Positions 24,005 through 50,058 are shown, counted from the first letter of the stretch. The stretch is DNA of 64,000 nucleotides from an uncultured Gammaproteobacteria bacterium (GCA_965231135.1 OZ246419.1:81028-145027), one strand, 5' to 3'. The notes: generated from the sequence alone by a model not told the origin. Numbers and translations: made by a program.

Positions 24005-24064
24005 GATTCGAACCTACGACCTTGTTCTTAACAGGAACCCGCTCTACCGCTGAGCTACAGGGGA
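23993..24064 (-). tRNA. tRNA-Asn (GUU)
   Basis: 72-nt cloverleaf folded by hand: acceptor TCCCCTG/CGGGGGA, D-arm GCTC AGCGGTA GAGC, anticodon loop CTGTTAA, T-loop TTCGAAT; no encoded CCA. Confidence 0.85.
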
Positions 24065-33665: not shown

Positions 33666-35450
33666 TCAGTCGTGCTCTATATTATAAAGAGGGCCAACAA
33701 TCTGGATATTTGCAGGGGCACGAAGATTAAAATAATTTTTGAAATCATCACCGTTTACAGTCTCATTTCCTGCATCACCTGATGCTGTAATGCTTGTTGT
33801 GCGGCCAGTTGAAAAATCTACATTTACAGAAATATTACTAATATTATTAAAAGGCGTTACTCCTCTACTTTGGAGCTGACTTCTAACCTGGTCAGGACTC
33901 CATGTGTCAGTTCCTTCAGGATTTGGTTTATCAATCTGGTAAAGATGAGACTCGGTGCTATTGTCCTTTTCAGCAAGAAGAGCAGAATTTACAATGTCTG
34001 CTAATTCTGATGGACGAAGCCAGGCTGTGTGGTTGTTTTCAGCGCGCGACCCCCAATCGCAATAAAAAACAGGAGAAGATTTGTCATATGCGTTGTTATT
34101 TAAATCTGAAAAACTATTTACACTTCCGCTTGCGTCAACAAGACGCTTTGTCCAGGGAGTTGACGACCAACCGATGTCACTTGATGTAAATTCAAAACCG
34201 CCATGAGTTGCAGAGAACCAAGCTTTAATAGGATTTCCTCCATTTGTCATAACAATCCCTTTGGTAGCGTCAACTGCTTGCTGCCAGGCATCGTTATTTA
34301 ATTCCTGTTTTACAACCTGACACGATTGTGACGGACAAATGCTTCCTGAACCATTATTGGTATAAGCTAACGCAAAACTTCTTGCCGCTATTGCTTGAGC
34401 TTTAAGAGCTTCAGCAGGCCAATTAGTCGGCATTTCATAAAGGTGTTTCAGATAATCATCAATATTCCAAGTGGTGTCAAAACTTTGGCCAAATTCATTG
34501 GTACCGACAACATGAATATTAATTCCATCATTATAATTTGTTGTGTAATCGGCATTATAGTAAGCTTGTAAAATAGTTTGAGCATTCTGGCCAGCATTTG
34601 CACGGCCTAAAGCTCCATATTGATTTAGGCCAACACGATTTGGAACTCCATAACTAAAAAATGCAAAAGCAGGACTAAAGCCTGGCGATTTAATTGTTGG
34701 AGAAATATCACTACTACATCCTCCATTCAAATCATATGCACTTCGAGAAATACCAAGACTTGCAAGTTTTGCTGCAATAAAAGCTTGTTGCCTTGCTGAG
34801 ATACTTGCAAGATATGCATTTGCTTTAGCAACTTCACCCGCTAAAAATGTTGCCTGACTTGTTACCTGTTTTTGAACTGTACTAAGAGCATCTTGGCTTT
34901 TTTTGAGAGTATCCTGCTCGTTTTTCAAATCATTAATTTGATTTGCGTAAGAAATAATACTATTAGTATCTGCGCTTTGAACCTTTTGTTCTAAAATTAA
35001 TTGCTGAAAAGCCTGATAGGCATTATTTGATAAAAGAATTAAAAAAAGCGGATCACTATTTGTCCTTAACCTTGTGTAATTATCAACAGTTTTTTGATTA
35101 AGAATTGTTTGAGTAAAACCCAAATCACTTTGTTTACTTGCAATAGTTTGAGAATAAATCTTCAATTGATCTGACATTGCAGAAAGACGAGAGTTTATAC
35201 TATTTAATTGGGATTGAAGAGAGCTTAGGTTTTTTTGATTAGTTTGATTTGCTGCAGAAATACTTGAGGCAATTCCACTTAAAATTTGAGTGCATTGATC
35301 AGTTTTTCCTTCAGCAACAATTTGGGCTGGATCTTCGTTTTGACAATCACTATTAATATCTGCCTTTACAACTCGTACTTTTTCTTCTAAAGAAAAAGTT
35401 ACGGCAAAGAAAAGAAAAACAACAAGAATAAATTTTAAAAATTTGGGCAT
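33666..35450 (-). CDS. Secreted coiled-coil protein with SpoIID/LytB-like domain
   Basis: Signal peptide, Q/S-rich coiled coil, then GVPNRVGLNQYGALGRANAGQNAQTILQAYY resembling the SpoIID/LytB conserved core. Confidence 0.5.
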   Translation of the reverse strand: MPKFLKFILVVFLFFAVTFSLEEKVRVVKADINSDCQNEDPAQIVAEGKTDQCTQILSGIASSISAANQTNQKNLSSLQSQLNSINSRLSAMSDQLKIYSQTIASKQSDLGFTQTILNQKTVDNYTRLRTNSDPLFLILLSNNAYQAFQQLILEQKVQSADTNSIISYANQINDLKNEQDTLKKSQDALSTVQKQVTSQATFLAGEVAKANAYLASISARQQAFIAAKLASLGISRSAYDLNGGCSSDISPTIKSPGFSPAFAFFSYGVPNRVGLNQYGALGRANAGQNAQTILQAYYNADYTTNYNDGINIHVVGTNEFGQSFDTTWNIDDYLKHLYEMPTNWPAEALKAQAIAARSFALAYTNNGSGSICPSQSCQVVKQELNNDAWQQAVDATKGIVMTNGGNPIKAWFSATHGGFEFTSSDIGWSSTPWTKRLVDASGSVNSFSDLNNNAYDKSSPVFYCDWGSRAENNHTAWLRPSELADIVNSALLAEKDNSTESHLYQIDKPNPEGTDTWSPDQVRSQLQSRGVTPFNNISNISVNVDFSTGRTTSITASGDAGNETVNGDDFKNYFNLRAPANIQIVGPLYNIEHD

Positions 35451-35515: not shown

Positions 35516-36283
35516 ATGTTGAAGAAAATAGTCGGCTTATTTATATTTTTGTTTTTAGGATTATTTTTAAAACCTGGGTTGGTTAATGCCGAAACAATGA
35601 CGTGTAGCGAGACCAGCTTTGATTCTTCTAGAAATTTGCAGATTTGTTTAGGAGGTTTCACGAATGCAAATGAAATAAATAAAGTTAGTTTCAGTGCTTC
35701 TTGTACAGGCTCTGGGGCTGGAATTGTTAACGGTACTACTGTTCAGTGTTCATTTTCCCAACAAGATGCTAATTTATCTGGTATTAGTGCCGTTCCAGAT
35801 AATTCAAATCCTGGAACTTATTATGGATGTTTTACATTACCAACCATAAATCCTGAAGTAAAATCGGCTCGTCTTACTTTTATTGATGGATCTTCTTCTT
35901 GTACTTTAAATGCAGACACATCCACAAATGCGAGCGGTGATGTTTTCCCCGGGCAGAATTCTGGTCCTGGAATTACCCCTACTTGTGTAGTAAATGGAGG
36001 TGGAACTGGTATAAATACAGCTGTTGGTTGTATTCCAATTGATAATCAAAGTGATTTGATTGGCTTTTTCTTACGCTGGGCAATTGGAATTGGCGGAGGA
36101 ATTGCGTTTTTGTTAATTCTTTTTGCAGGATTTCAGATTATGACTTCAAGAGGAGATCCAAACAGACTTAAAGCTGGGCAAGAGCTTATGACTTCTGCTA
36201 TTGCAGGACTTTTACTGTTAATTTTTTCAGTAATAATTCTTCGAATCATTGGAGTTGATATACTACAAATAAAAGGACTTTAA
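35516..36283 (+). CDS. Secreted Cys-rich protein fused to a C-terminal pilin-like two-helix module
   Basis: Sec signal (VNA-ET), ~180-aa Cys-rich domain, then LIGFFLRWAIGIGGGIAFLLILFAGFQIMTSRGDPNRLKAGQELMTSAIAGLLLLIF matching the consensus of the seven downstream paralogs. Confidence 0.55.
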   Translation: MLKKIVGLFIFLFLGLFLKPGLVNAETMTCSETSFDSSRNLQICLGGFTNANEINKVSFSASCTGSGAGIVNGTTVQCSFSQQDANLSGISAVPDNSNPGTYYGCFTLPTINPEVKSARLTFIDGSSSCTLNADTSTNASGDVFPGQNSGPGITPTCVVNGGGTGINTAVGCIPIDNQSDLIGFFLRWAIGIGGGIAFLLILFAGFQIMTSRGDPNRLKAGQELMTSAIAGLLLLIFSVIILRIIGVDILQIKGL

Positions 36284-36285
36284 AA

Positions 36286-36621
36286 ATGAATTTACTTGCA
36301 CAATCACCTATTGATTTTAATGGTATTCAAAGTAAAGGTGAGCCTGATGCAACTTTTTCTGCCAGTACCAAAATTGGAGATATATTAGCAGCTGCTATCC
36401 CCTGGATATTTACAATTGCCGGCATGGTTCTGCTTGTTTATTTAATTTTTGGAGGAATTCAATTAATGTTATCTCGCGGCGATCCGAAAGCTGCCGGAGC
36501 TGCTAAAGCACACATTACAAATGCGTTAGTTGGATTTATAATTATTTTTATTGCTTATTGGGTTGTACAACTTATTGGAATTGTGTTTTATTTACCGGGG
36601 ATAACAAATATATTTAAATAA
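36286..36621 (+). CDS. Pilin-like two-helix membrane protein, paralog 1
   Basis: N-terminal MNLLAQ motif; TM - GGIQLMLSRGDPKAAGAAKAHITNALVG - TM architecture shared across the array. Confidence 0.55.
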   Translation: MNLLAQSPIDFNGIQSKGEPDATFSASTKIGDILAAAIPWIFTIAGMVLLVYLIFGGIQLMLSRGDPKAAGAAKAHITNALVGFIIIFIAYWVVQLIGIVFYLPGITNIFK

Positions 36622-36623
36622 TT

Positions 36624-36938
36624 ATGAAATTAATAGCTCAAGGAGTTGATATTGGTTCACAGTTTAACTCTCCATATGGAGAGACAGCTACGCTTGGTAA
36701 TTTAGTATCTTTAATAGTAAAAATTGGATTTGTAGTTTCGGGAGTTTTAATTTTATTTTTTTTAGTATTTGCAGGATTTTCAATTATTCAAGGAGCTGGA
36801 AGCAATAATCCAGATGCCGCTAAGCGCGGGCAGCAGGCAGCAAGTGCCGCTGTAATTGGTTTCGTTGTTGTTTTTGCAGCCTACTGGATAGTTAGACTGA
36901 TTGAGGTTATAATTAAAGTACCTATTATTTCACAATAA
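36624..36938 (+). CDS. Pilin-like two-helix membrane protein, paralog 2
   Basis: MKLIAQ N-terminus; AGFSIIQGAGSNNPDAAKRGQQAASAAVIG loop between two TM helices. Confidence 0.55.
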   Translation: MKLIAQGVDIGSQFNSPYGETATLGNLVSLIVKIGFVVSGVLILFFLVFAGFSIIQGAGSNNPDAAKRGQQAASAAVIGFVVVFAAYWIVRLIEVIIKVPIISQ

Positions 36939-37298
36939 ATGAGAAACTTAATCGCTCAAGCAACAGCACCAGATATAGGACATGTTCCCCTTCCTACAGC
37001 ACTAAGCAATTTTGGTGATGTGAGCGGTGGCGGAATTGGGAAGTTTTTAAATTTAGTTCTTAAATTACTAATTGTTGGCGGCGGAATTTATGCTCTTTTT
37101 AATTTAGTTTTAGCTGGATATGCATTTTTGTCTGCAGGAGATGACCCGAAAAAAGTTGAGGGTGCGTGGGCAAGAATCTGGCAGACTGCAATAGGATTAC
37201 TGTTTATGGCAGGAGCTTTCGTACTTGCGGCGATATTTGGGAAACTTATATTTAACGACTGGACATTCATTCTTAATCCACAAATTCCAATTATATGA
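36939..37298 (+). CDS. Pilin-like two-helix membrane protein, paralog 3
   Basis: MRNLIAQ N-terminus; AGYAFLSAGDDPKKVEGAWARIWQTAIG loop. Confidence 0.55.
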   Translation: MRNLIAQATAPDIGHVPLPTALSNFGDVSGGGIGKFLNLVLKLLIVGGGIYALFNLVLAGYAFLSAGDDPKKVEGAWARIWQTAIGLLFMAGAFVLAAIFGKLIFNDWTFILNPQIPII

Positions 37299-37654
37299 AA
37301 AATTTAATTGCTGACATACCATTAGGACCAGGGTTTCAAGGAGTGGGACCTTTAGGGACAGGACAAGCATCAGATGCTGGAACAACCTTTAATAGCGCAC
37401 TTTCAAAAGTAATTGGAGTTATGACTGTGGTTGCCTTTATTTGGTTTACTTTTCAAATGGTAATTGGCGCTATTCGCATACTTGCATCTGGCGGAGATAA
37501 AGGGGCAGTTGAAGCAGCACGCAAACAAATTACAACTGGAATTATTGGAGTTGTGATTGTTGTTGCTGCAATCTTTATAGTGAGCTTACTTGGGACAATA
37601 CTTGGGTTGCATAATATTTTGAACCCCATTTGTATAATAAATAATAATTGTTAA
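37295..37654 (+). CDS. Pilin-like two-helix membrane protein, paralog 4
   Basis: MKNLIAD N-terminus; ILASGGDKGAVEAARKQITTGIIG loop; 4-nt overlap with previous gene. Confidence 0.55.
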   Translation: MKNLIADIPLGPGFQGVGPLGTGQASDAGTTFNSALSKVIGVMTVVAFIWFTFQMVIGAIRILASGGDKGAVEAARKQITTGIIGVVIVVAAIFIVSLLGTILGLHNILNPICIINNNC

Positions 37655-38037
37655 TTATGTATAAAAATTTAATAGCACAAGCACAAGGAGGTAGTGGAGG
37701 TTCTGGAGTTAGTAATGGCGGGATAACTAATCCTGCAATTGGGAGTTTAAATAACAATACTGGAGTAGGTTTTGTACAAGAGCTTATCCCCTCTTTGATT
37801 AGTCTTGCATTTCTTGCCGGTGCAATTTTATTTTTCTTTATGTTACTTATCGGAGGTATTCAGTGGGTGACAAGCGGCGGAGATAAAGGAGCAGTTGAGG
37901 CAGCACGGGGAAGAATTGCACAAGCTTTGGTAGGAATAGTTGTACTTTTTAGTGTTTTTGCTATAATAAAACTCATTGAAGGGTTTTTCGGAATTAATAT
38001 TTTAACTCTTGACATTAACCCTTTAATAATTAAATAA
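37648..38037 (+). CDS. Pilin-like two-helix membrane protein, paralog 5
   Basis: MYKNLIAQAQ N-terminus; GGIQWVTSGGDKGAVEAARGRIAQALVG loop. Confidence 0.55.
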   Translation: MLIMYKNLIAQAQGGSGGSGVSNGGITNPAIGSLNNNTGVGFVQELIPSLISLAFLAGAILFFFMLLIGGIQWVTSGGDKGAVEAARGRIAQALVGIVVLFSVFAIIKLIEGFFGINILTLDINPLIIK

Positions 38038-38047
38038 TAAAATACAA

Positions 38048-38425
38048 ATGATGAATTTACTCGCACAAGCACAAAGTGGAACAGGCGGAACAACAGGTGA
38101 ACAAACAATTAATTTACAGCCACAAGCTGGTTTAGTTCCCAGTGTTAGCGGTATAACAATAAGTAGTCTTCTGGGTGGTGCAATTAATTTAATTTTGGTA
38201 GCTGCTGCTTTGATCTTTTTTATAATGCTTGTGATTGGTGGAGTTCAGTGGATCCTTTCTGGAGGAGACAAAGGACAAACTGAAGCTGCAAGAGGAAGGA
38301 TTACAGCTGCTTTAATTGGTTTGGTAATAGTATTTGCCGCTTGGGCAATTGCAAGTTTGGTTGGAAGTTTGTTTGGAATTAATATATTTAGTTTGCAGAT
38401 AACTCCAATATCTAGTTTTAAGTAA
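38048..38425 (+). CDS. Pilin-like two-helix membrane protein, paralog 6
   Basis: MMNLLAQAQ N-terminus; GGVQWILSGGDKGQTEAARGRITAALIG loop. Confidence 0.55.
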   Translation: MMNLLAQAQSGTGGTTGEQTINLQPQAGLVPSVSGITISSLLGGAINLILVAAALIFFIMLVIGGVQWILSGGDKGQTEAARGRITAALIGLVIVFAAWAIASLVGSLFGINIFSLQITPISSFK

Positions 38426-38478
38426 TTTGATTTATTTCTTGCCTATTCCTTGTTTAATTCTTCTTTTTCATTTACAAT

Positions 38479-38772
38479 TTGATTATGAACCCACCAGAAC
38501 CTTTGACTGGACTACAAAATATCTTTAGCAATATTGTTTCAATTGCTATTGGGCTTGCTGGAATTGGTTTTTTTGTGATGTTTGTTGTAGGAGGATTTAA
38601 TTACTTAACAGCAGGCGGTGATGAGCGAAAAGTACAAGGAGCAAGACAAACGCTTACATATGCAATTGGTGGACTTGTTTTAATAGCACTTGCTTATTTA
38701 ATATTAAAACTTATTTCGGATTTCACTGGAATAACGGGAATATTAAATTTCCAAATCCAACAAAATCCATAA
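38479..38772 (+). CDS. Pilin-like two-helix membrane protein, paralog 7 (divergent, lacks NLIAQ)
   Basis: GGFNYLTAGGDERKVQGARQTLTYAIGG loop between two TM helices. Confidence 0.5.
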   Translation: MIMNPPEPLTGLQNIFSNIVSIAIGLAGIGFFVMFVVGGFNYLTAGGDERKVQGARQTLTYAIGGLVLIALAYLILKLISDFTGITGILNFQIQQNP

Positions 38773-38794: not shown

Positions 38795-41700
38795 TTGTAT
38801 AATTCAAGTATATTTATGAAATTGAAGTTAGTTGTTTTGTTGTCTTTAATTTTAGGAAGTTTGTCACTTCTTTTTATTAATAAAAATGTTTTTGCCAGAG
38901 ACGGCGGACCTGCTGCGAGCGACCCTGATATAAACATAACCTTAAGAAATTGGAAACCTGCTAATTTTCCGAACCAATTAATAGACCATCCGCAAAATAC
39001 AGATTTAACCGGGGCGCCACAGCTCTTGTATACTTTTGGGTCTCCAAACTTTACAAATTTTTATCAAATTAATGCCGTCGGGAGCAATAGCCCGGACTCT
39101 TCAAATGTTAATTCACCTGGAGCTGCAACGATTTCGTTTCAATCAGGAGATGACATAAAAGCACCAGTAGTGGGGAGAAGCATTGGGAGCGGATTTAATT
39201 ACACAATTTTATATGCCACTTCAACTGATATTGTGATTCATAACGGACTGGAAGATAGTGTTGCTAGCGGCTACACAATTCATTTTTTAAATATTAATGT
39301 TAACCCCACTCTACTTCAGATGTATAACGATAATGAAGCAAAAGGGCGAACACAACTTGTTGCCATTCCCTGTGGCTACGTGATAGGAACTGCAAGCGGA
39401 GATCCGTTTGTATCTATTCGAGATACGGGAAGCTTTATGGACCCCAGATTTAAAGACTGGTGGAGTTCTGATTCACCTGGGGTTTGTAATGATGTGCCGC
39501 CTGGATATGTAACTGCTGGAAGCAGTACTCAACCGGCGACAAACACCGAGCCTTACGACCTGTCCACAAATGTACCATGCAATGAAACCAATTATGATAT
39601 TTATAAAAGTACGGGAGGAACCGGAGCAGCTACCGAATTTCATTCTCTCAGGCCATATCCTGCAAGCCCATGTTACAAACAAACTCCTCCAAGTGAAATG
39701 GCAGCTCTTTGTTCAAATGATTTGGTTGTCATTAAACAAACTTCACCTAACTCTGCGTATCAGACAGGTTGCACTACTCCTGCTGCCGATGGGTCATATT
39801 CATGTAACTACGCAAATGTTCCAGAAAGCGCACAAGTTTCAATTGATTTAACTGGAGCACAATTGCCAATTCTCGGGAACACGCAAGATGTGCCGAATGG
39901 GACTTGGACAAGCCCAAACACGAGCGCTAATAATTTAGATGCTGCTCAGCGGGTAAATAATTATGTGAGCTGGTATTTAAACGGAGTTGTTGATAAAGCG
40001 GAAAACGATTTTTCAAGCAGCGATCCAAACTATTTAGTTAATTACTCTGGGCCACTTAATAAATTATTGCCTTTTGTCGGGCAAATACTTTCAAGAGAAA
40101 ATATTATAACTAGAGCAGCTAATTCTGTAGCTGGACCTGCAACTTCTACTGATGAACAGGGGCTTCACAATAAAATAGTTGAATGCGATTTCCCTGAGCA
40201 AGCTGGAAGCATGCCATGTTATTTATATACAATAACCAGATTTATAAGTTTTCTTCAGGCAGTAAGCCCTAACAATACAATGACTCAAGGGCAAGGGGAT
40301 GCTATTGCTAATTTGTCTACTATAAGAAGAATTACTGATTGGGTAGGCCACACCCCTCCACTTGAACAAGATTTTTCAACTGTAAGCGGATGGCTGCAAG
40401 CTTATTCACAATGGCTTGGGAATATTTGTATAACACCAATTTTTGGCTGCCCAACAACTCCCTCAACATGGTGGGCAAAGTTTTTTGCCTTTGTTCCTTT
40501 TTCTACAAACGAAGACAGAGTCGGTACTATTGGAACCAACCAAATAGCAAACACAACGCCAGCAAATAATTCTTGTAGAACGACAGGGGCTCCTTGTTCA
40601 ACTACTTGCGCTAACGGGAAAACTTTTAGCGACAGCTGCCCTGGGAACGGATCGTTTGATTCATGCAGCCAGTGGGCGCAACAAGCGTGCGGTACGGTAA
40701 ACAGCACTCCTCTATCAAATAACGGAGATACTACAAGCTTTGGGCAAACTAATCCTGGAGATGTGACTTTTACACCAAGTAATGGGACAAATAATATACA
40801 TAATTTATATTTTGCTCATGCACAAGAAGATACAGAGCTTGCAACACAATTGCAAAACACTTTTAAGTCAATTGATGCAACAAGCAGCCATGATACCAAT
40901 ACTGCGCCTCAAATCGGGCCTGGATGTACGATTTTAAACACTAGAACAAATCCTGGAGATAATTTATATGGAGATATCGATAGAACAAAAGCACAAGGAT
41001 ATGCGCAAGACGATCAAAAAATATCGGGAACAGTAAATTTTACCGGAAGCTATACTTGTACTTTTAAACCAATTGTTAGTGTCTCAGGCAGCACGTTTGA
41101 AAACGGAGGAGGAATTAGCGGAAACTTAACATATACATGTACATCAGCGACTGCAAATCTTTCAATTTATACGCAGAGCCCGGAAGTCGGAAACATCTGG
41201 GATCAGCTTGTCGGCGGATCACAATCAATTTTTAAAAGATTTTTCCCACAAACCGGAGCCAACTCTCCAGTTACTCAAATCACAGAAACACCAGCACAAA
41301 CGAATATTACTTATCAAGCTGGAGGAGATGATGAAGTAACTGCCGGAAATAGCGGCGGGGGCGGAGCGACAGCAACTGCAAATTTATATATTCCATATGT
41401 GGGCGGGATAAAAGATTATTTTTTAGATGCAATACAAACAGCTCTTAGGCCTCAGGGAATGGGAACATCCCCTGCATTAACAGCCTCCTCTAATTCGTCG
41501 AGTTCCAGTTCCGGGCCAATTTCCTGTACACCTGATGATTTTGCAGCAGCTTTTGGAGACCAAGCTAAAAATGCATCATGCATTGCCAATGCAGAAAGCA
41601 GATGTATACCTGATAACCATAATTTATCCTGTTTAAAAATTGGCGGTACACAGGATTATAGTTATGGACTTTTTGGAATAAATTTACTTGCTCATCCTGC

Positions 41701-41989
41701 TATTCAAGCTTTGACTCCTCCTGATCTTAAACAGCAATTTGATTCAATTGCACAGAGTGAAGGAAAACCTGCTGGATATTATTGGACCTGCAAACAAGGA
41801 TTTACAACAATTGGAATAGCTGATGCTAGCGGACACATGATTAGCCCTTGTGTTATTGGAGATCAGGCGATTGTTGATAAATGTGTGCAATATTATTCTA
41901 ATGCACAAAATAATATGAATTATGCAGCTGCGTTTGAACAAAGATTTGGTTGGAAATATTGGGGTACTGCTCCTCAATGTGGGCTTTAA
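38795..41989 (+). CDS. Giant Cys-rich surface protein (1064 aa) with C-terminal lysozyme-like/lytic-transglycosylase-like domain
   Basis: N-terminal signal anchor, many Cys, T/S/N-rich, C-terminal ...CIANAESRCIPDNHNLSC...DYSYGLFGINLLAHP resembling the catalytic Glu-Ser and GLMQI-type motifs of the SLT/GH23 fold. Confidence 0.5.
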   Translation: MYNSSIFMKLKLVVLLSLILGSLSLLFINKNVFARDGGPAASDPDINITLRNWKPANFPNQLIDHPQNTDLTGAPQLLYTFGSPNFTNFYQINAVGSNSPDSSNVNSPGAATISFQSGDDIKAPVVGRSIGSGFNYTILYATSTDIVIHNGLEDSVASGYTIHFLNINVNPTLLQMYNDNEAKGRTQLVAIPCGYVIGTASGDPFVSIRDTGSFMDPRFKDWWSSDSPGVCNDVPPGYVTAGSSTQPATNTEPYDLSTNVPCNETNYDIYKSTGGTGAATEFHSLRPYPASPCYKQTPPSEMAALCSNDLVVIKQTSPNSAYQTGCTTPAADGSYSCNYANVPESAQVSIDLTGAQLPILGNTQDVPNGTWTSPNTSANNLDAAQRVNNYVSWYLNGVVDKAENDFSSSDPNYLVNYSGPLNKLLPFVGQILSRENIITRAANSVAGPATSTDEQGLHNKIVECDFPEQAGSMPCYLYTITRFISFLQAVSPNNTMTQGQGDAIANLSTIRRITDWVGHTPPLEQDFSTVSGWLQAYSQWLGNICITPIFGCPTTPSTWWAKFFAFVPFSTNEDRVGTIGTNQIANTTPANNSCRTTGAPCSTTCANGKTFSDSCPGNGSFDSCSQWAQQACGTVNSTPLSNNGDTTSFGQTNPGDVTFTPSNGTNNIHNLYFAHAQEDTELATQLQNTFKSIDATSSHDTNTAPQIGPGCTILNTRTNPGDNLYGDIDRTKAQGYAQDDQKISGTVNFTGSYTCTFKPIVSVSGSTFENGGGISGNLTYTCTSATANLSIYTQSPEVGNIWDQLVGGSQSIFKRFFPQTGANSPVTQITETPAQTNITYQAGGDDEVTAGNSGGGGATATANLYIPYVGGIKDYFLDAIQTALRPQGMGTSPALTASSNSSSSSSGPISCTPDDFAAAFGDQAKNASCIANAESRCIPDNHNLSCLKIGGTQDYSYGLFGINLLAHPAIQALTPPDLKQQFDSIAQSEGKPAGYYWTCKQGFTTIGIADASGHMISPCVIGDQAIVDKCVQYYSNAQNNMNYAAAFEQRFGWKYWGTAPQCGL

Positions 41990-42003
41990 GATATAATTTA
42001 TTT

Positions 42004-42459
42004 ATGAAGGAATTTATATTTAAATATAGAAAAATTTTAATTTTAATATTGGGGATTTTTATTGTAATTATTTTTGTTTTTATTTATTTAAATTCACGAG
42101 GACAAAATGTTTCGACAGATCAAAATAATTTTAAAGCCCCAACAGGTGTAAAAGTTAATGTTAACAACCAGACAGTAAATAATTTTTACAAAAGCGATAC
42201 TTTTACCTATCCTACTGGAAATGCTGTGATTGACGAAAACCCTTATTACCAAATTGCATATACTTCAAATAATCAAGAATTTTTAATAACAATTTTATCT
42301 TCAGACCCTAATTCACAAAACCTGGCAGAGCAAGATTTTGTGAGTAAGCTTTCGATATCGCAAAGTACTGCATGTAAATTAAATGTGGAAGTAAGAAGTT
42401 ATTCAAATCTAAACATTACAAGCAGTCCAAATCTTTCTAAGCTTAGTTTCTGTAAGTAA
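42004..42459 (+). CDS. Small secreted/membrane-anchored hypothetical protein
   Basis: Start moved to MKEFIFKYRK to avoid overlap with upstream gene; single N-terminal TM helix. Confidence 0.4.
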   Translation: MKEFIFKYRKILILILGIFIVIIFVFIYLNSRGQNVSTDQNNFKAPTGVKVNVNNQTVNNFYKSDTFTYPTGNAVIDENPYYQIAYTSNNQEFLITILSSDPNSQNLAEQDFVSKLSISQSTACKLNVEVRSYSNLNITSSPNLSKLSFCK

Positions 42460-42494: not shown

Positions 42495-44156
42495 ATGACT
42501 AAATTAATTTCAAAATTTTTAATTTCTATAATTACAAGTTTGGTTTTGGTTTTCAGCATTGTTCCTGCTGCAATGGCACAAACACCAAATCCAGCACAGG
42601 TGGGAACACAAGGAGTAGGACAAGCACTGCAAGGAGCAGCACCAGAATCTTCTACCAATACTACGTCTGCAACTCCAGGGCCATGGTATAACCAGAACTT
42701 TGGACAGTGGTCTGCAAAAGTTTTTGACTCTTCTAACCCAAATGAGATATTTGGAGAAAGATACACATACGCACAGGTTAACTGGATTATTAATTCATTA
42801 ATTGCGGTGATTATTGGATCTGATATTAGTAGCTGCATTTCTTCTGGCTCAAACGGAAACGTCTCGTCGATAGGTACTTGTGCAGCAAAATTATTACCAA
42901 GCAACCAAACAAGTAATAATACTGGAATGAAAGGTGGAACTTTTACCGCTTTATCTTATTTAGGTGGAACATTAATGAATTTTAAACCTGCATCTGGAGT
43001 AAATTATACCAAGCAAATCGCTTCTAATTTACATGTAATATCTCCAGCTTATGCTCAAAGCACAAGCGCTGGTTTTGCAACGCTTTCTCCTGTTCAATCT
43101 TTGTGGCAAGTAGTGAGGGATATTTCTTATTCTTTAATGGTTGTAATAATAATTATTGCTGCCTTTGCAATAATGTTTAGATTAAAATTGTCTCCTCAGC
43201 TTACAGCTTCTATTCAATCAATATTACCACGTATTGCCGTTGCATTAATTTTAATCACTTTTTCTTATGCAATCGCTGGTTTTTTGATTGATTTAATGTA
43301 TGTAGTTATTGGAGCGTTTGCTGTTATGGTAAAAATAGGAGGTTCTACCTTAAGTACAGGTTCGGTTCTATATCTTTTTGGTCAGCTTAATTCTATTAAC
43401 GGACTAACAAGCCTTTTTATCGGGATGTTAATTTTTATCGTGCTATTAGTAGGCGGCGGAGCTTTATTAACGTTAGGAGCAATAAGTGCTGGTGTGATTT
43501 CTGGTGGTATAAGTGTATTAGGTATACCAGTTGGTATTATTATTGTATTGGTTGGAGTTATTTTTGTAGGGTGGATTATTTTGCGTTTAATTTGGCTTTT
43601 GGTTAAAACCTCTGTTATTACTGTTCTTTTAATTATTGCTTCTCCGTTTATGATTTTAGGTGACACTTTAGATATTGGTGGTGGATTTATAAGTTGGTTT
43701 AGAACACTTGCTGCTAATTTAGCCGTTTATCCAACTGTAACAATCATGATTTTTTTGGCTCACTATTTCTTTTGGGGATGGGCAGCTGGTGCACTTACAC
43801 AGATTTTTCCTACCAATAATCCTTTTAATACTTATGCCATTTCTGCTCTTAATATAAATGGGACGTCTGGTGTGATTAATTTACCTGGCATGCCTATTGG
43901 TACATCTATAATTGGTTTTTTTGCAGCTTTTATAATTGTATTTTTAATTCCAAAAGCTGCAGATGTAGTTGAAGGAATAATTAAAGGTAAAGGTGTGGAT
44001 GTTGGAGGTGCTGTTAAAGAATCTCACGGTCCAGTTCGAGCTCTACTCGCATCTCGTGCTGCAAGTTATGAAACTTATAAGAGATCGTTGCCAGGAGGCG
44101 ATCCAAAATATGTTGATCCAGTCGCACAATTCCTTCGATCAACTGGCATTATGTAA
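42495..44156 (+). CDS. VirB6/TrbL-like polytopic T4SS channel protein with N-terminal extracytoplasmic domain
   Basis: Signal peptide, ~190-aa exposed domain, then six or more long hydrophobic helices with Gly-rich segments; size and topology typical of VirB6/TcpH/ConG-like proteins; the call rests on architecture and locus context. Confidence 0.5.
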   Translation: MTKLISKFLISIITSLVLVFSIVPAAMAQTPNPAQVGTQGVGQALQGAAPESSTNTTSATPGPWYNQNFGQWSAKVFDSSNPNEIFGERYTYAQVNWIINSLIAVIIGSDISSCISSGSNGNVSSIGTCAAKLLPSNQTSNNTGMKGGTFTALSYLGGTLMNFKPASGVNYTKQIASNLHVISPAYAQSTSAGFATLSPVQSLWQVVRDISYSLMVVIIIIAAFAIMFRLKLSPQLTASIQSILPRIAVALILITFSYAIAGFLIDLMYVVIGAFAVMVKIGGSTLSTGSVLYLFGQLNSINGLTSLFIGMLIFIVLLVGGGALLTLGAISAGVISGGISVLGIPVGIIIVLVGVIFVGWIILRLIWLLVKTSVITVLLIIASPFMILGDTLDIGGGFISWFRTLAANLAVYPTVTIMIFLAHYFFWGWAAGALTQIFPTNNPFNTYAISALNINGTSGVINLPGMPIGTSIIGFFAAFIIVFLIPKAADVVEGIIKGKGVDVGGAVKESHGPVRALLASRAASYETYKRSLPGGDPKYVDPVAQFLRSTGIM

Positions 44157-44164: not shown

Positions 44165-46171
44165 TTATTTAAAATAATCGCGGTGTTGAGATGTAAAGGC
44201 AGATTTAGCTTGCATCCAGTTAAGCCCAAATGCGTCGTTTTGAATGAAGTTAAAACCTTTTGATTTGTTTTTAATTCCAAACCACAGCTTAAGGATATTT
44301 TCTCTAATAGAGTTATCTAATTTTAGTTTTTTGACAACGTTGCTTAACTCTTGTCCGTTTATCCCTGATCCTTGTCCTTTCATAATAACGTCGTATAATT
44401 TTTTTGCGGAGCCAAGATCTTCTAAATAATATCCTGAAAACGGAGTATTCCCAACTTCTTTCCAAGGAATATTGTTTGCTGAGACCGAAGCTGAGCCATT
44501 ACTCCAAATTTCTCTTCCTACATGTTGTAGAACTTCAAACAGATTTACTTTTCCGTCTTTGTCTTTAGTTATTCCATATGCATCAATTTCAGAAGTTGGT
44601 TTGAATGTTATAGCTTTTAAAGCGTTTCCAATAGTTTTTCGAGGGAGAACTACAGGAAATTTATCGATATTTTTAACATTTTTATATTGTAATGACCATT
44701 CACCTGCTTGCCCCATAGCTTCAGGGGTACCACCAGTCGCTTTGGCAAAAAGCCTTTCTTGTGGATGCATAACCATCCACATTGCTGGACTTTTAAAATG
44801 ACTTGGTGCTGCATTTGGAATTGGTTTATTTCGATCATTTCTTTTTACAACGTGGCCTTCATTATCGTAGTTATATACACTATCATATTCTTCAAGAACA
44901 CTTGTAGCATATATAAGGTTCCAAGCGACAGCTTCTGCTTTTTTAGCATCTTCTTCGTTCACTCCTGTTTTATCCATTAGGAATTGCCACATACCCTTTC
45001 TAAAAGAGTCAAACTGTTCGTTTGTTTTAATATCAAAAACACTCCTTATTTCGCCAGGGTTATTCATGTCATTATTTGGAATATGTATAAATCTGATACT
45101 CTTATCATCTGAGATGACTGTGGAGTATAGTGCCGCTGCGTTAAATACTCCATTTATTTTCATTCCATTTTCTAATGTCGAATTCTCTAGCTGATATCCT
45201 AGTTGGTTGTCTGTTAGTTTATCGTATGAAACTGCTGCTCTTTTATAAGCTGCAAAAGACCATATAGAGGCACGAGCTTTCCATTCTTTAGTTATTATTT
45301 CTCTTTCTTTCGGATTATTATGTCCAATAAGTAAAAATGCTGGAACTTTTAATGTCATATCTACTGGGGCATATGCACCTCTTTCTACTGTTTCATATAT
45401 TTCAAGTTGTTGTTCCGGCGAACCTTCTCCAGAGGCCATGGCAAAGCCACGAGCAATATCTTCGGCTGTAAGCCCTGTCGCTCCACCTTGCTGCAACATT
45501 TGTATATAAGCAATCATTTGTTGCATTAATTGTTCTTGAGTATCTGGTTTCGGAGGTTGTTGTTTTTTAAGTTCTTCATTAAGATATGATTTTGCCTGAC
45601 TTTCTAATGCTTGTGGTGGCAAACCCCAACCTCTAACGCCGATTTCTCTTTTTAAAGGTGCTATTTTGGGGCTGTTTTCTGGTGCTCCTCCTGCTCTTCC
45701 AAGAGCTAATGCCATATTTAAAACAGCAACATCTCTATATTCACTTAGAATCCCATCATAAGCGTCATTCCAGCCTTCTACTCCTTTTTCAAAGTCTTCT
45801 AATTCTTCAACATTGAGTGCGTTTATTTTCCCGTATGCAGTTTTATAGTCATTATTCAGTTGGATATCTATTAATGCGTTTTTAAGTTGTTTAAAGACGC
45901 CTTGTTCTTGTGCAGAACGAATAATACGAGCTCTTTCTGTTTTTAATGTTTTTTCTTTTTGTGGATCAGGATTGTTAATTAAAGTTTTTAATTCATTTTG
46001 GACTTCGCTAAAAGGGCGAGGAAATTCTTGTTTAGATTCTGCTCCACTTCCGCCTCTTTCAAAAACATGATGACCACTGGGCCTTGGCATTTCAGGCCTT
46101 TTTCCAAAATCAGGATTGAAACCCATATTTTCTGGTGTCATGTTTGTATCTGGAGAAACTCCATCGGGCAT
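44165..46171 (-). CDS. Large hypothetical protein (668 aa) of unknown function
   Basis: Long clean ORF on opposite strand within the T4SS-like locus; no signal peptide, no nucleotide-binding motif found. Confidence 0.45.
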   Translation of the reverse strand: MPDGVSPDTNMTPENMGFNPDFGKRPEMPRPSGHHVFERGGSGAESKQEFPRPFSEVQNELKTLINNPDPQKEKTLKTERARIIRSAQEQGVFKQLKNALIDIQLNNDYKTAYGKINALNVEELEDFEKGVEGWNDAYDGILSEYRDVAVLNMALALGRAGGAPENSPKIAPLKREIGVRGWGLPPQALESQAKSYLNEELKKQQPPKPDTQEQLMQQMIAYIQMLQQGGATGLTAEDIARGFAMASGEGSPEQQLEIYETVERGAYAPVDMTLKVPAFLLIGHNNPKEREIITKEWKARASIWSFAAYKRAAVSYDKLTDNQLGYQLENSTLENGMKINGVFNAAALYSTVISDDKSIRFIHIPNNDMNNPGEIRSVFDIKTNEQFDSFRKGMWQFLMDKTGVNEEDAKKAEAVAWNLIYATSVLEEYDSVYNYDNEGHVVKRNDRNKPIPNAAPSHFKSPAMWMVMHPQERLFAKATGGTPEAMGQAGEWSLQYKNVKNIDKFPVVLPRKTIGNALKAITFKPTSEIDAYGITKDKDGKVNLFEVLQHVGREIWSNGSASVSANNIPWKEVGNTPFSGYYLEDLGSAKKLYDVIMKGQGSGINGQELSNVVKKLKLDNSIRENILKLWFGIKNKSKGFNFIQNDAFGLNWMQAKSAFTSQHRDYFK

Positions 46172-46892: not shown

Positions 46893-47885
46893 TTAACATA
46901 CACCTTCAAAGACCTGGCCACAGGAACATTGATACCCTGGCTCAATCTTTTTTTCAATAACTTTGTGACAATATGGGCATTCTTTGACGTATTTGGCTTT
47001 TTTCTCGCCTAAATTTGCTTGTCTAAAATTGCCCATGCCGTCCATGACATAATTTCCAAAGCGAAACTCAAGCTCCTGATTTAGCGAACCTGGGCAAGCA
47101 TAAGTGTTTATTTTCCAGCCTTTTTCCTGCATTAACCTTTCTGCTGCCGCCCCGGAGCGGATATAATCTCTTTCGTGAACTGCAAATTCCAATTCAATAC
47201 TCATTTGCTTTGCAATTGGCAAGGCATCCCATACTGCCCTACTTTTAATTTTTCTTGGGGCGCCTTTTTTTATTTCTTCTAACGCTTTCGAATCAAGATC
47301 TAAAAAATCTAAATTGGAGGTTAAAAAGGCAGCTTGGCGCAAATCATCCGGATTAAAAATCAAATCTTTACCTTCTTTAATTAATAATTTATCAGCAAGT
47401 AATAATAAATCCTGGGGAGACAATTTCGAAGGGATTCCGTAACACTCCAGCACTTTCATACCCAAAAGATGTCTTACTTTAGCAATATTAATTCTTGATT
47501 CTTTATAGGGAGAATTACCTCCTGAAGGACTAAAAGAAATAATAAATTCATTTTCTTTTGCTTGCTTAGCTTTTTGATAATAAAAATCTATTGCGCCTGC
47601 AGTCTCGGCAGATGATAATTCATTGTTGTTACCAAAATTGACAGCTACTTCTTCGCGAGAGGTTAGATTAATAATTTTACCTTCTTGAGTGATAGCAATA
47701 TACCAAGGATTAATTCTTTCTTCTAAGTTTCTGTCTCCTGCTTCAATGACAAGGCCGGCAAGATCGTGGGCAATAACCCAGCTGCGTTTTTTTAAAGAAT
47801 ATTTTTTATAGATTGCAGTATCAAATACTTTTTTTGTTTCTGTGAAGTCAAATTGAGAATTTATTTTTTCTTGACGATCTACCAT
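46893..47885 (-). CDS. Hypothetical protein with C-terminal CxxC...CxC zinc ribbon
   Basis: C-terminal ECPYCHKVIEKKIEPGYQCSCGQVFEGVC. Confidence 0.45.
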   Translation of the reverse strand: MVDRQEKINSQFDFTETKKVFDTAIYKKYSLKKRSWVIAHDLAGLVIEAGDRNLEERINPWYIAITQEGKIINLTSREEVAVNFGNNNELSSAETAGAIDFYYQKAKQAKENEFIISFSPSGGNSPYKESRINIAKVRHLLGMKVLECYGIPSKLSPQDLLLLADKLLIKEGKDLIFNPDDLRQAAFLTSNLDFLDLDSKALEEIKKGAPRKIKSRAVWDALPIAKQMSIELEFAVHERDYIRSGAAAERLMQEKGWKINTYACPGSLNQELEFRFGNYVMDGMGNFRQANLGEKKAKYVKECPYCHKVIEKKIEPGYQCSCGQVFEGVC

Positions 47886-48095
47886 ATCTGCTCGGAATTA
47901 AACCCTTGTTAGTTTTCCGACTATACGGTAGCGGCACTGCGAGGGAATTACACCCTACTTCCTTAAACACAAAGATAATTTTCATATTAAACTTTCATTC
48001 TTTAAAAACAAGGAGTGTTTTGTGCGTGAAAATGCTATAATGGTTGCTTAAACTGCTTCACAGAGTAAAGTTAAAGTAAGGCATAGTTTTTTAAA

Positions 48096-49317: not shown

Positions 49318-50058
49318 ATGCAAAACAACAATCAACAAAATCAGTCTCAACCAATACAAAAAACTCCCAACAAAACAGTTGATAATGCAAAAAACATGAT
49401 TGGAAAGATTCCTTTTTTGAATCTTCCTGATTTACCGCTTATTTCTACAACACAGGATGAACTTCCAATTGCTGATATAACTGACGATTTAGTTTTATTT
49501 AAAGATGGAGGAGCAGCTTTGGTCATGGAAACTACTTCACTTAACTTTGGATTGTTATCTGAAAAAGAACAACAAGCCGTAGTTTATTCATATGCTGCAC
49601 TTCTTAATTCACTTTCTTTTTCAATACAAATACTTGTTAGATCTCAGCGAAAAGATATAAGCAATTATTTAACTTATTTAGCTGAAGCTGCTAACAAGAT
49701 TTCCAATCCTAAACTACAGGTTGTTATGAACTCTTATAGGACTTTTATTGCTGAGATTGTTAAAAAGAAAAATGTTTTAGGAAAGCGATTTTTTATCGTT
49801 GTACCATTTTCTCCACTGGAACTTGGAGCTAAACAATCTTTTTCGACAGTCACAAAACGAGGGCCACTTCCCTTTCCTAAAAGTTATATTTTGAAAAAAG
49901 CACAAGTGGCGCTTTATCCAAAACGAGATCATTTAACAAGACAGGCTGGAAGACTTTCTATAAAATTAACACAATTAAATACAAACCAATTAATAGAATT
50001 ATTTTATGAATTTTATAATCCGACGCCGCCAGCAATTACTGATAAAGGAATCAAATGA
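49318..50058 (+). CDS. VirB4/TrbE N-terminal domain encoded as a separate ORF
   Basis: LPIADITDDLVLFKDGGAALVMETTSLNFGLLSEKEQQAVVYSYAALLNSLSFSIQILVRSQR matches the CagE_TrbE_VirB N-terminal signature; stop overlaps downstream start in ATGA. Confidence 0.55.
   Translation: MQNNNQQNQSQPIQKTPNKTVDNAKNMIGKIPFLNLPDLPLISTTQDELPIADITDDLVLFKDGGAALVMETTSLNFGLLSEKEQQAVVYSYAALLNSLSFSIQILVRSQRKDISNYLTYLAEAANKISNPKLQVVMNSYRTFIAEIVKKKNVLGKRFFIVVPFSPLELGAKQSFSTVTKRGPLPFPKSYILKKAQVALYPKRDHLTRQAGRLSIKLTQLNTNQLIELFYEFYNPTPPAITDKGIK

Follow-up and report, generated by a model that had tools for sequence, protein, structure and literature searches.

Wall hydrolases of type IV secretion

CwlT of ICEBs1 brings a glycosidase and a Cys-peptidase (NlpC/P60) to the service of one Gram-positive-type T4SS, and the default role of such enzymes is the opening of the producer's own wall. 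In PrgK, an intracellular N-terminal domain and a TM helix are followed by a degenerate LytM, an SLT (muramidase) and a CHAP domain (PMC11323569). Of these, LytM and CHAP are inactive in vitro, and dimerisation is mediated through the CHAP Cys (PMC11323569). In Patescibacteria, T4SS loci lie near dnaA, contain pilin arrays and are devoid of a relaxase (PMC12102498), and the sole species of this group tested genetically requires its T4SS for epibiotic growth. In this species, S. epibionticum, hydrolase homologues adjoining virB4 are essential (PMC12102498); the single polypeptide SEML1_0006 carries two lysozyme-like regions and a cysteine proteinase, and SEML1_0007 resembles M15 (PMC10633639 supplement). 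A survey of such loci found VirB1-type hydrolases rarely linked to virB4 and VirB6 scarce in Microgenomatia (PMC12102498).

A T4SS locus next to dnaA

The DNA analyzed here, a stretch of 64,000 nucleotides (the window), is oriC-proximal chromosome of a Microgenomatia-type Patescibacteria (CPR, ultrasmall) MAG, the proximity to oriC following from the adjoining dnaN and dnaA genes. It contains a complete Patescibacteria-type T4SS locus (Table 1), in which eight VirB2-like pilin genes are followed by the genes for a 1057-aa secreted protein, a polytopic membrane protein, PrgI/VirB3, a TrsD-like protein, VirB4, a 1009-aa protein and a Big_5 protein, and then by dnaN/dnaA. The features by which such loci are recognized (Quinonero-Coronel et al. 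2025) are all found, namely VirB4 together with TrsD and PrgI/VirB3, an array of VirB2-like pilins, a position near dnaA and no relaxase nearby; the window ORFs scanned contained neither a relaxase nor a coupling-protein domain. Two very large proteins, which a sequence-only reading had assigned to the same locus, are indeed both encoded in this one T4SS locus with its eight T4SS_pilin genes, PrgI/VirB3, TrsD-like protein and VirB4. The rest of the region is of housekeeping character (dnaA, dnaN, rnpA, yidC), and a SpoIID-domain protein is encoded beside the pilin array.

Table 1 Features of the T4SS locus in window coordinates
Feature	Position	Strand	Basis or remark
Pilin array, 8 tandem VirB2-like T4SS genes	35516-38772	+	Pfam T4SS_pilin PF18895
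Individual pilin genes	35516-36283, 36286-36621, 36624-36938, 36939-37298, 37295-37654, 37648-38037, 38048-38425, 38479-38772	+	
Secreted 1057-aa protein	38816-41989	+	100% match to NCBI 1057-aa protein VG895_04585
Predicted Sec signal peptide of 1057-aa protein, aa 1-27	38816-38896	+	MKLKLVVLLSLILGSLSLLFINKNVFA, then RDGG
Variable N-terminal beta-rich domain of 1057-aa protein, aa 31-240	38906-39535	+	
Family-defining conserved core of 1057-aa protein, aa ~250-880	39563-41455	+	
C-terminal lysozyme-like domain of 1057-aa protein, aa 901-1057	41516-41986	+	Pfam SLT_3 type, 8 Cys
Small bitopic membrane protein, 169-aa ORF	41950-42459	+	Probable start ATG 42004
553-aa polytopic membrane protein	42495-44156	+	Signal peptide, ~170-aa ectodomain, about 6-7 TM (hydropathy)
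668-aa conserved protein between the two T4SS operons	44165-46171	-	
PrgI (VirB3-like) membrane protein, C-terminal CarboxypepD_reg domain	48096-49316	+	Pfam
TrsD-like protein, resembles N-terminal part of VirB4	49318-50058	+	NCBIfam TrsD/TraD E=4.5e-7
VirB4-family T4SS ATPase	50055-51809	+	Pfam P-loop_TraG E=4.5e-32, AAA_10, DUF87
1009-aa membrane-anchored predicted hydrolase, directly after virB4	51816-54845	+	Composition, hydropathy, homologues
CHAP domain of 1009-aa protein, aa 839-1009	54330-54842	+	Pfam, AF2, Foldseek
204-aa Big_5 (Ig-like) protein, membrane-anchored or secreted	54849-55463	+	Pfam Big_5 E=1.3e-9
dnaN (55468-56598), dnaA (56803-58182)	55468-58182	-	Pfam

All eight pilin genes match T4SS_pilin, six of them at or above the 26.6-bit cutoff and the first (26.0 bits) and fourth (17.1 bits) below it. 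PrgI scores 29.1 bits against a Pfam cutoff of 27, with its CarboxypepD_reg domain at E=2e-7, and the orthologue of the TrsD-like protein in the related locus L001 gives a weak Pfam TraC-like match. The Big_5 protein has an N-terminal hydrophobic segment, is encoded by the final gene of the virB4 operon and is conserved in L003 and L004. The 169-aa ORF, with a single TM segment (aa 21-52, hydropathy), has a homologue fragment in L019 by sequence and a gene of like size at the same place in L034; it has no significant family match in Pfam or NCBIfam. The 553-aa family is kept downstream of the homologue of the secreted protein in 20 related loci, with a like-sized gene there in L034-L036, and has neither a Pfam match (no TrbL/VirB6) nor a PDB sequence match, even with a 16-sequence profile; judged by topology and position only, the 553-aa protein is a candidate VirB6 analogue. 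Homologues of the 668-aa protein, which has no family match in Pfam or NCBIfam, occur in L001, L005 and L023, and a large minus-strand gene (600-831 aa) takes its position in L034-L036.

This arrangement is widely shared. The order VirB4, 1009-aa family, dnaN/dnaA is found in 26 of 31 GTDB species representatives, and a 27th (L031) has the first two and ends before dnaN; dnaN/dnaA adjoin the locus in 30 of the 31, L031 ending before them. The 1009-aa gene starts 7 nt past the virB4 stop, and its homologue begins at most 40 nt from that stop in 27/31 loci. The longer order, from the pilin array through the families of the secreted and the 553-aa protein to PrgI, the TrsD-like protein, VirB4 and the 1009-aa family, is present in L001, L034, L035 and L036.

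The secreted protein of the pilin operon

The 1064-aa ORF called earlier at 38795..41989 (plus strand) is present, but its TTG start at 38795 did not hold, as the deposited protein of 1057 aa begins at the ATG at 38816 (MKLKLVV...). This protein and the 1009-aa protein are exact matches to VG895_04585 and VG895_04540, respectively, of a 'Patescibacteria group bacterium' MAG (810,692-bp contig). The 1057-aa gene is the last of the pilin operon and closes that operon in five of five loci checked. The 168 homologues of the 1057-aa protein and the 251 cluster representatives of the 1009-aa protein (both at E<=1e-3) show that the ORFs are not due to chance, and every homologue of the former with a named source belongs to Patescibacteria (Woesebacteria, Microgenomates, Saccharimonadales).

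Hydropathy gives a hydrophobic segment at aa 1-26 and no further TM segment, and the signal peptide cleavage site was read from the sequence by inspection. The AF2 model has a mean pLDDT of 81.5 and a pTM of 0.68. As had been noticed, the protein is Cys-rich, with 28 Cys (2.65%), of which at least 12 are nearly invariant in the family. The N-terminal domain (aa 31-240) differs across the family and is the probable site of a degenerate LytM-like fold that is devoid of the HxxxD and HxH zinc ligands. The core is kept in about 116/119 homologues, carries the conserved motifs EFHSLRPYPASPC, NNYVSWYLNG, YSGPLNKLLP, STNEDR and LYIPYVGGIKDYFLDAIQTALRPQG, and contains a disordered Cys-rich insert (aa 577-645). 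It matches no Pfam or NCBIfam family and has no significant Foldseek match in the PDB; with no recognized fold or function for aa 250-880, hydrolysis may be just a part of the work of this protein. The adhesin-like extra regions proposed earlier were not borne out: no adhesin fold was found, the recognizable extra domain being the LytM fold and the remaining core having no PDB match.

The C-terminal domain contains the motifs on which a GH23/SLT-like ending had been proposed, i.e., NAESRC (aa 925-930) and TQDYSYGLFGIN (aa 945-956; ATG numbering). It scores 20.0 bits (E=1e-3) against SLT_3 (PF18896), under the gathering threshold of 27. The homologue P0025 reaches 31.6 bits, above the threshold, and the C-terminal domains of the two proteins match at E=4e-46, so that the window domain belongs to SLT_3 by transitivity via P0025 and not by its own score. 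A lysozyme fold is supported by the predicted structure of the C-terminus. In a PDB profile search, the candidate catalytic residues Glu927 (41594-41596) and Asp947 (41654-41656) align with their c-type lysozyme counterparts Glu35 and Asp52, and the catalytic Glu looked for in an SLT-like domain is therefore present. Glu, Ser and Asp are invariant in 20/20 lysozyme modules, and Glu927-Ser928 also in 11/11 sequences of alignment A8. A GH23 lytic transglycosylase uses a single catalytic Glu without a second acidic residue and yields a product with 1,6-anhydroMurNAc. Of the proposed GH23/SLT-like ending, the lysozyme fold thus stands, while the Glu and Asp pair resembles c-type lysozymes (GH22-like) more than canonical GH23. 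To judge from residue conservation, the invariant Asp947 aligned with Asp52 would favor a hydrolytic muramidase over a GH23 lytic transglycosylase.

The membrane protein after virB4

The 1009-aa ORF is present as described earlier, and its proposed layout was confirmed. The charged N-terminal half (aa 1-500; 35% K/R/D/E in aa 86-500) is followed by a Gly/Ala-rich part (aa 501-700; 37-39% Gly+Ala over aa 501-830), by clearly hydrophobic TM helices at aa ~691-819 that form the multi-TM core, and by the CHAP domain. The TM region ends in the invariant LFIINSGAYVVP, and the motif LFIINSGAY is invariant in the membrane core of the family. The protein has no signal peptide, and the CHAP domain follows the last helix after a linker of about 20 residues; the N-terminal half is predicted to be cytoplasmic and the CHAP domain external.

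Against PF05257 the CHAP domain scores 23.7 bits (E=6.7e-5), under the gathering threshold of 26, which two homologues exceed, P0123 with 27.9 bits and P0144 with 29.3 bits. The domain HMM searches suggested by the sequence-only reading hence matched both expected families, but left both window proteins under the Pfam gathering thresholds. Structure prediction, suggested likewise, confirmed the lysozyme and CHAP folds of the two C-termini. The CHAP domain is modelled at an AF2 pLDDT mostly >90, and its best Foldseek matches in the PDB (5d76, E=1.6e-4, then 6ist, 4olk, 4csh, 8xyf and 3a30, all at probability 1.00) are all CHAP enzymes, such as Ly7917 (E=1.6e-4), LysGH15, CHAPK and Gsp amidase. 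The anticipated Cys/His pair is found in NLQC(901)...GH(965)IGVV...CAD(981)AN(983) at the C-terminus, where Gln900-Cys901 (Cys 54516-54518), His965 (54708-54710), Asp981 (54756-54758) and Asn983 (54762-54764) are invariant in 49 aligned sequences. The invariance of the CHAP and lysozyme centers would argue for selection on catalysis.

Exchange of hydrolase modules

Whenever recognizable, the C-terminus of 1009-aa homologues always carries some wall-hydrolase module. Among 53 sequences (the window protein and 52 library homologues) these are CHAP in 30 (matches at E<=0.01), M23 in 6, Amidase_5 in 3 and NAGPA in 1, and among 29 sequences (the window protein and 28 GTDB homologues) M23 in 12, CHAP in 3 (window included), Amidase_2 in 2 and M15_4 in 1. 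The M23 replacement module has an HLHYE motif. The 1064-aa family varies in its C-terminal module as well, which is of the SLT_3 type in only 20/119 members and NAGPA in one. In contrast to the published survey, the Microgenomatia gene after virB4 in this locus and about 30 relatives thus regularly encodes a hydrolase module on a conserved membrane core, and the gene at the end of the pilin operon encodes a lysozyme-like and probably also a LytM-like module. With modules at both sites, the predicted hydrolase function is not absent but concealed within fusion proteins that are large and divergent.

Role of the two proteins

Both proteins are best explained, with a probability of roughly 0.7, as predicted peptidoglycan-hydrolase (VirB1-equivalent) components of the chromosomal, oriC-proximal T4SS of a Microgenomatia-type member of Patescibacteria. 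The 1009-aa protein would be anchored at the secretion channel, its N-terminal half close to VirB4 on the cytoplasmic side, and would cleave stem peptides or cross-links by means of its external CHAP domain. The 1057-aa protein would be exported by Sec and then cleave glycan strands as a muramidase, with its degenerate LytM-like domain binding or regulating, and the two hydrolases together may breach the wall locally to make room for assembly of the channel and the VirB2-like pilus. The LytM-like, lysozyme and CHAP domains found here mean that the three extracellular domains of PrgK are present, spread over two polypeptides.

Since neither LytM nor CHAP of PrgK is active in vitro, an intact center is no proof of activity, and one or both domains might be catalytically silent wall-binding or regulatory modules that position or dimerize the machine. 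The CHAP Cys of PrgK as a dimerisation residue and the missing metal ligands of the LytM-like fold agree with such a role, but the invariant CHAP and lysozyme residues, together with replacement by other intact hydrolase families (M23 with HLHYE), point to catalysis and make it improbable. Somewhat less improbable, though still doubtful, is that the 1009-aa protein chiefly serves as the VirB6-like translocon subunit otherwise missing from the Microgenomatia T4SS (an 'extended VirB6'), with an accessory hydrolase domain. Its position right after virB4 in 27/31 loci, the conserved membrane core with LFIINSGAY and the extreme divergence that the survey proposed for VirB6 in Microgenomatia would fit. 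Against this, no TrbL/VirB6 Pfam match was found in the 53 and 29 family members and no PDB sequence match either, only about 3-4 TM helices are clear, pLDDT stays <50 in the Gly/Ala-rich part of the model, the 553-aa protein is the better VirB6 candidate in topology, and the succession of an intracellular domain, a TM segment and a hydrolase outside the cell is that of PrgK. That both are ordinary housekeeping autolysins of growth or division merely adjoining T4SS genes is disfavored as very unlikely: the SpoIID-domain neighbor and the housekeeping surroundings would suit this, but the operon-like linkage to pilins and virB4 is tight (gene spacing 6-45 nt) and widely conserved, in every locus examined.

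A different target is conceivable for the same enzymes, which may, with the T4SS pilus or channel, breach a host bacterium's wall so that the epibiont can attach, deliver effectors or take up nutrients. This is a serious but minority possibility, and the corollary that C-terminal modules are exchanged to fit the wall chemistry of different hosts, which is compatible with the preferred explanation, is held equally tentatively. Modules are swapped among relatives on the conserved membrane core, both terminal domains vary in the 1064-aa family, and the T4SS is essential for epibiotic growth of S. epibionticum. The swapping resembles that of phage lysins, whose module pattern tracks host walls. 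On the other hand, any wall hydrolase might do for local self-lysis, so that module exchange could be neutral, and a tether of ~20 residues to the producer's membrane leaves the CHAP domain poorly placed to reach another cell. A rather unlikely elaboration has the Sec-exported lysozyme protein travel with or cap the VirB2-like pilus while the channel-anchored peptidase co-breaches the host wall, the swaps recording host adaptation.

As predicted T4SS hydrolases, the two proteins provide well-defined candidate enzymes with named catalytic residues for Patescibacteria, and module swapping offers a possible handle on host specificity. If the enzymes are host-directed, the swaps (the membrane protein ends in M23, CHAP, Amidase_2, M15 or NAGPA, the secreted protein in one of several lysozyme-like tails) would make module type a genomic predictor of host range in uncultivated Patescibacteria, and the conserved core of 600 aa would be a new pilus-associated delivery scaffold.

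Comparison with known systems

What the two proteins represent is no new system but a T4SS wall-cutting enzyme of an already known kind in a layout particular to this lineage. The earlier likening to PrgK, TraG and CwlT is upheld for T4SS location, hydrolase folds and catalytic residues but not for sequence homology: a tblastn search against plasmid-encoded proteins (E<=0.01) gave no similarity to either window protein. Of the traits of the class, encoding in a T4SS cluster beside virB4 and, for the 1009-aa protein in its predicted orientation, a membrane anchor with an outside hydrolase are found here; a glycosidase and a peptidase in one polypeptide are not, the lysozyme-like domain being encoded in 38816-41989 and CHAP in 51816-54845.

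Compared to PrgK (pCF10, Enterococcus faecalis), a DELTA-class Gram-positive T4SS hydrolase, the domains are thus split over two proteins and two operons, the glycosidase protein is Sec-secreted, of about 1057 aa and endowed with a large core of unrecognized fold, and the anchor of the 1009-aa protein is multi-helix and Gly/Ala-rich instead of a single helix. Pilin genes are a further difference from the PrgK system, as is the absence of a relaxase from the window. In TraG (pIP501), as here, a glycosidase and a CHAP Cys-peptidase serve one Gram-positive-type T4SS. In TraG and CwlT both domains reside in one small protein with a canonical SLT glycosidase, whereas here they are separate, fused to much larger proteins, and the glycosidase is SLT_3/c-type-lysozyme-like.

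Among specialized lytic transglycosylases of the VirB1 (Agrobacterium) and EtgA type, VirB1 is a small GH23 enzyme with a single catalytic Glu, whereas the tail domain of the 1057-aa protein has a Glu and Asp pair and eight Cys, as c-type lysozymes do. The animal c-type lysozymes (GH22) are its closest fold match among the lysozyme-fold matches and share with it, as does SLT_3 (PF18896), the layout Glu-Ser...Asp-Tyr-x-x-Gly-x-Phe-Gln-Ile-Asn and eight Cys; the sequence likeness of GH22 to this domain is only marginal (best E=0.034), compatible with common ancestry or with convergence within the lysozyme superfamily. The 365-aa phage tail protein phi29 gp13 has an active M23 domain and differs in domain order and in the remainder. 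Southlakia epibionticum ML1 likewise has a Patescibacteria T4SS locus with a pilin array, VirB4 and adjoining wall-hydrolase homologues, which are essential in ML1; in the Microgenomatia layout described here, by comparison, the peptidase module forms part of the membrane protein encoded behind virB4, and the lysozyme module part of the product of the last pilin-operon gene.

Genomic setting of the two large proteins

The two ORFs called in the sequence-only reading are both present, and their products are identical to the NCBI MAG proteins VG895_04585 and VG895_04540 ('Patescibacteria group bacterium', contig of 810,692 bp). The deposited first protein starts at ATG 38816 and comprises 1057 residues, which is the numbering used here (1064 residues if counted from TTG 38795). 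Its N-terminus, MKLKLVVLLSLILGSLSLLFINKNVFA/RDGG, looks like a Sec signal peptide by sequence. The window (G+C ~34%) contains dnaN, dnaA, rnpA, yidC and jag a short way 3' of the two ORFs, and tRNAs and a tmRNA on their 5' side; it is chromosome adjoining the replication origin, neither plasmid nor phage. The tmRNA has a long predicted tag peptide (AKSNDQASEVNPLMALLGVGSNQSALAFA). An OLD-family nuclease (AAA_15 plus OLD-like TOPRIM), which looks like a defence gene, and a large serine recombinase adjoining tRNA-Asn hint together at a small integrated element, or a defence islet, 5' of rpoD/dnaG.

Both ORFs lie in a T4SS locus with a pilin array and PrgI/VirB3-like, TrsD-like and VirB4 genes. 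The first protein is immediately preceded by a tandem run of eight small genes that each match Pfam T4SS_pilin (a VirB2-like family), and is followed by a small bitopic protein, a 553-aa polytopic membrane protein and two conserved unknown genes on the opposite strand, one of them preceded by an AdoCbl riboswitch. The second plus-strand operon encodes, in order, the PrgI/VirB3-like protein, the TrsD-like protein, the VirB4 ATPase (P-loop_TraG, E=4.5e-32), the 1009-aa protein and a Big_5 protein. A promoter and terminator scan gave signal no better than in shuffled sequence. The locus fits the account of the Patescibacteria T4SS given by Quinonero-Coronel et al. 2025 (PMC12102498), in which the VirB4 is akin to that of monoderm MPF-FATA systems, TrsD and PrgI accompany it, the pilin genes form arrays of 2-11 (above all in Microgenomatia and Saccharimonadia), dnaA is close by and a relaxase is absent. 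Southlakia epibionticum requires its T4SS for growth as an epibiont (PMC10633639).

Four related loci that encode a homologue of this protein (L001, L034, L035 and L036) share one gene order, where the homologue is the large protein: opposite-strand SpoIID gene, pilin array, large protein, polytopic membrane protein, PrgI, TrsD-like protein and VirB4. When GTDB species representatives were scanned for the motifs FIINSGAY and LQCVGF, 31 loci came up, mostly from Woesebacteria and Microgenomates MAGs. The homologue of the 1009-aa protein starts at most 40 nt from the virB4 stop in 27 of the 31, and dnaN and dnaA come next in 26 of those 27, locus L031 stopping short of both genes. VirB4 itself varies in length (see table); that of locus L026 may be a TrsD-VirB4 fusion, since a separate TrsD gene is lacking there.

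Several further features accompany the locus. The SpoIID-domain protein, a member of another wall-lytic family, is encoded divergently and adjoins the pilin array; its gene keeps an equivalent position in L001, L035 and L036, along with a DUF5657 protein. Between the two T4SS operons lies a gene for a 668-aa soluble protein without family match, with homologues in L001, L005 and L023 and a large minus-strand gene at its position in L034-L036; possibly the T4SS has here a component that has escaped recognition. The AdoCbl-II (B12) riboswitch, divergent from prgI, precedes the gene of a 330-aa protein with a Cys-rich, zinc-ribbon-like C-terminus and no family match, and three of the seven related loci tested keep the riboswitch at an equivalent position. 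This would put a B12-sensing gene inside a secretion locus, in an organism with minimal metabolism.

Coordinates of features in the window and in related loci
Feature	Locus	Position	Strand	Size
OLD-family nuclease	window	17931-19592	-	
Large serine recombinase	window	22505-24004	+	
tRNA-Asn	window	23992-24064		
tmRNA	window	30515-30928	+	
SpoIID-domain protein	window	33666-35450	-	594 aa
First protein, ORF from TTG	window	38795-41989	+	1064 aa
Core of first protein	window	39563-41455	+	~600 aa
Soluble protein	window	44165-46171	-	668 aa
ORF behind riboswitch	window	46893-47885	-	330 aa
AdoCbl-II riboswitch	window	47903-47975	-	
Second protein	window	51816-54845	+	1009 aa
AdoCbl-II riboswitch	L001	19073-19145		
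AdoCbl-II riboswitch	L033	4559-4630		
AdoCbl-II riboswitch	L036	16925-16996		
VirB4	L026	2628-5210		860 aa
VirB4	L028	5148-8723		~1190 aa
VirB4	L031	1730-5326		~1190 aa
1009-aa protein homologue	L009	4892-10930		2012 aa

The 1009-aa protein and its CHAP domain

The 1009-aa protein lacks a signal peptide. Charged residues make up 35% of aa 86-500 and Gly+Ala 37-39% of aa 501-830, and clear hydrophobic helices occur only at aa ~691-819, ending in LFIINSGAYVVP. Homologue searches with the full protein and with aa 689-1009 returned just one and four matches, because Gly/Ala-rich words swamped the search, and an exhaustive HMMER search was therefore used. At E<=1e-3 it retrieved 251 cluster representatives, the majority 700-980 aa long and aligned through the membrane core to the final residue.

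The CHAP fold with its Cys/His pair, as claimed from the sequence, is confirmed, and so is its catalytic centre. Gln900-Cys901, His965, Asp981 and Asn983 show no variation across 49 aligned sequences; the last 170 residues have mostly pLDDT >90 in the AF2 model; the top Foldseek matches in the PDB are solely CHAP enzymes (Ly7917, LysIME-EF1, LysGH15 CHAP, CHAPK, PlyGRCS and Gsp amidase; all probability 1.0, best E=1.6e-4); and homologues exceed the Pfam CHAP threshold of 26 bits, the window protein scoring slightly below it at 23.7. A single-sequence PDB search with the CHAP region matched only a metalloendopeptidase (E=0.0085), which was judged spurious, and the family profile found nothing in the PDB but low-complexity or coiled-coil noise.

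The membrane core of this family is joined to differing wall-hydrolase modules between genomes. Among 53 sequences (the window protein and 52 library homologues), Pfam assigns CHAP to 30, Peptidase_M23 to six, Amidase_5 to three and NAGPA to one. Among 29 sequences (the window protein again, with 28 virB4-adjacent GTDB homologues), M23 is found in 12, CHAP in three including the window protein, Amidase_2 in two and M15_4 in one. When the GTDB tails are clustered, 20 fall in an M23 group bearing an HLHYE motif.

The 1057-aa protein and its lysozyme-like tail

For the 1057-aa protein, 168 homologues were found, and all those named by a source are Patescibacteria. Strong conservation of motifs and Cys residues marks the family core (aa ~270-575 and ~650-890), only ~15 homologues have the N-terminal domain (aa 31-240) in common, and the C-terminal tail is variable. 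AF2 models the protein well (mean pLDDT 81.5, pTM 0.68), disorder being confined to stretches at 577-645 and 880-900. The ~600-residue core is confidently modelled, with the motifs EFHSLRPYPASPC and NNYVSWYLNG and many invariant Cys, and has no fold or family match in Pfam, NCBIfam or the PDB; it may represent a fold absent from the PDB and so far found only in Patescibacteria T4SS loci. An 'adhesin-like' character of the extra regions was discarded, neither protein having an adhesin fold or family match.

The tail (aa 901-1057) is of the SLT_3 type, the window protein reaching 20 bits where 27 is the threshold, while the tail of the homologue P0025 scores 31.6 bits and aligns to it at E=4e-46. 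This module occurs in 20 of 119 family members, and Glu927, Ser928 and Asp947 are conserved in all 20. A single-sequence PDB search with the tail gave nothing useful; a profile of 11 such tails retrieved only c-type lysozymes, weakly (best E=0.034), aligning Glu927 with Glu35 and Asp947 with Asp52 inside DY..G.FQIN. Of the GH23/SLT-like end proposed earlier, an SLT_3-type module and the conserved Glu are present; the weak PDB profile matches are c-type lysozymes, and the Glu+Asp pair suggests muramidase chemistry. A Pfam scan of nine other tail types gave only a weak SLT_2 match, which leaves it unproven that all tails of the family are lysozyme-like.

A LytM-like fold may sit in the N-terminal beta domain, at aa ~95-210, where it was placed solely because the secondary-structure content fits and a motif is loosely similar. 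With no HxxxD/HxH motifs, and with a negative hhalign comparison of five family segments against 20 genuine M23 domains, the domain would be a degenerate version of LytM. Searching this domain as a profile against the PDB, and against Pfam, gave no match either.

Proposed function and alternative explanations

With the folds, catalytic residues, predicted topology and conserved T4SS linkage of the pair established, the two proteins would provide the VirB1-equivalent wall-opening function of the T4SS, divided over two polypeptides, because the 1009-aa protein combines a PrgK topology with CHAP and the 1057-aa protein a lysozyme domain with a LytM-like fold. The former would be anchored at the channel beside VirB4, and the latter exported by Sec and co-expressed with the pilins. 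Both are presumably active enzymes in physical association with the secretion machine. Catalytic silence, as in the PrgK LytM and CHAP domains, is possible by analogy, but the complete and invariant active sites argue against it. A purely housekeeping role is unlikely, as the synteny with T4SS genes speaks against it.

As to which wall the pair would cut, a less likely reading is action against a host: the module swapping in the 1009-aa family looks like phage lysin evolution and would suit an enzyme obliged to match variable host walls. It could equally be neutral exchange between enzymes that all make a hole, and in the presumed membrane orientation the CHAP domain, joined to the membrane of the producer by a tether of ~20 residues, is ill placed for reaching another cell. 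The 1009-aa protein could possibly be a divergent VirB6, but Pfam scans of the 53 and 29 sequences gave no TrbL/VirB6 match and the topology of the 553-aa protein suits a VirB6 better, although VirB6 homology went undetected there too in Pfam scans of family members and PDB profile searches.

Comparison with known systems

Hydrolases associated with T4SS have long been known. The Patescibacteria T4SS has likewise been described, in a survey that found VirB1 homologues mostly unlinked to virB4 except in Paceibacteria, and VirB6 scarce in Microgenomatia (PMC12102498). A literature search found no published description of the architecture seen in this pair. The S. epibionticum T4SS locus encodes one protein with two lysozyme-like domains and a cysteine proteinase domain, and also an M15-like protein. 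PrgK of pCF10 consists of an intracellular N-domain, a TM helix, a degenerate LytM, an 'SLT' that is really a muramidase, and CHAP (PMC11323569). The 1009-aa protein shares its topology and CHAP, whereas the lysozyme domain and putative LytM-like fold are supplied by the 1057-aa protein on a separate polypeptide. The sequence-only reading likened the pair to Gram-positive T4SS cell-wall-piercing factors; the same kind of function is probable, but PrgK/TraG-type proteins carry both domains in one polypeptide, and tblastn with both hydrolase domains against a plasmid collection revealed no sequence homology to them. For these two reasons the pair, as far as can be shown, would work like the PrgK/TraG class rather than belong to it by descent.
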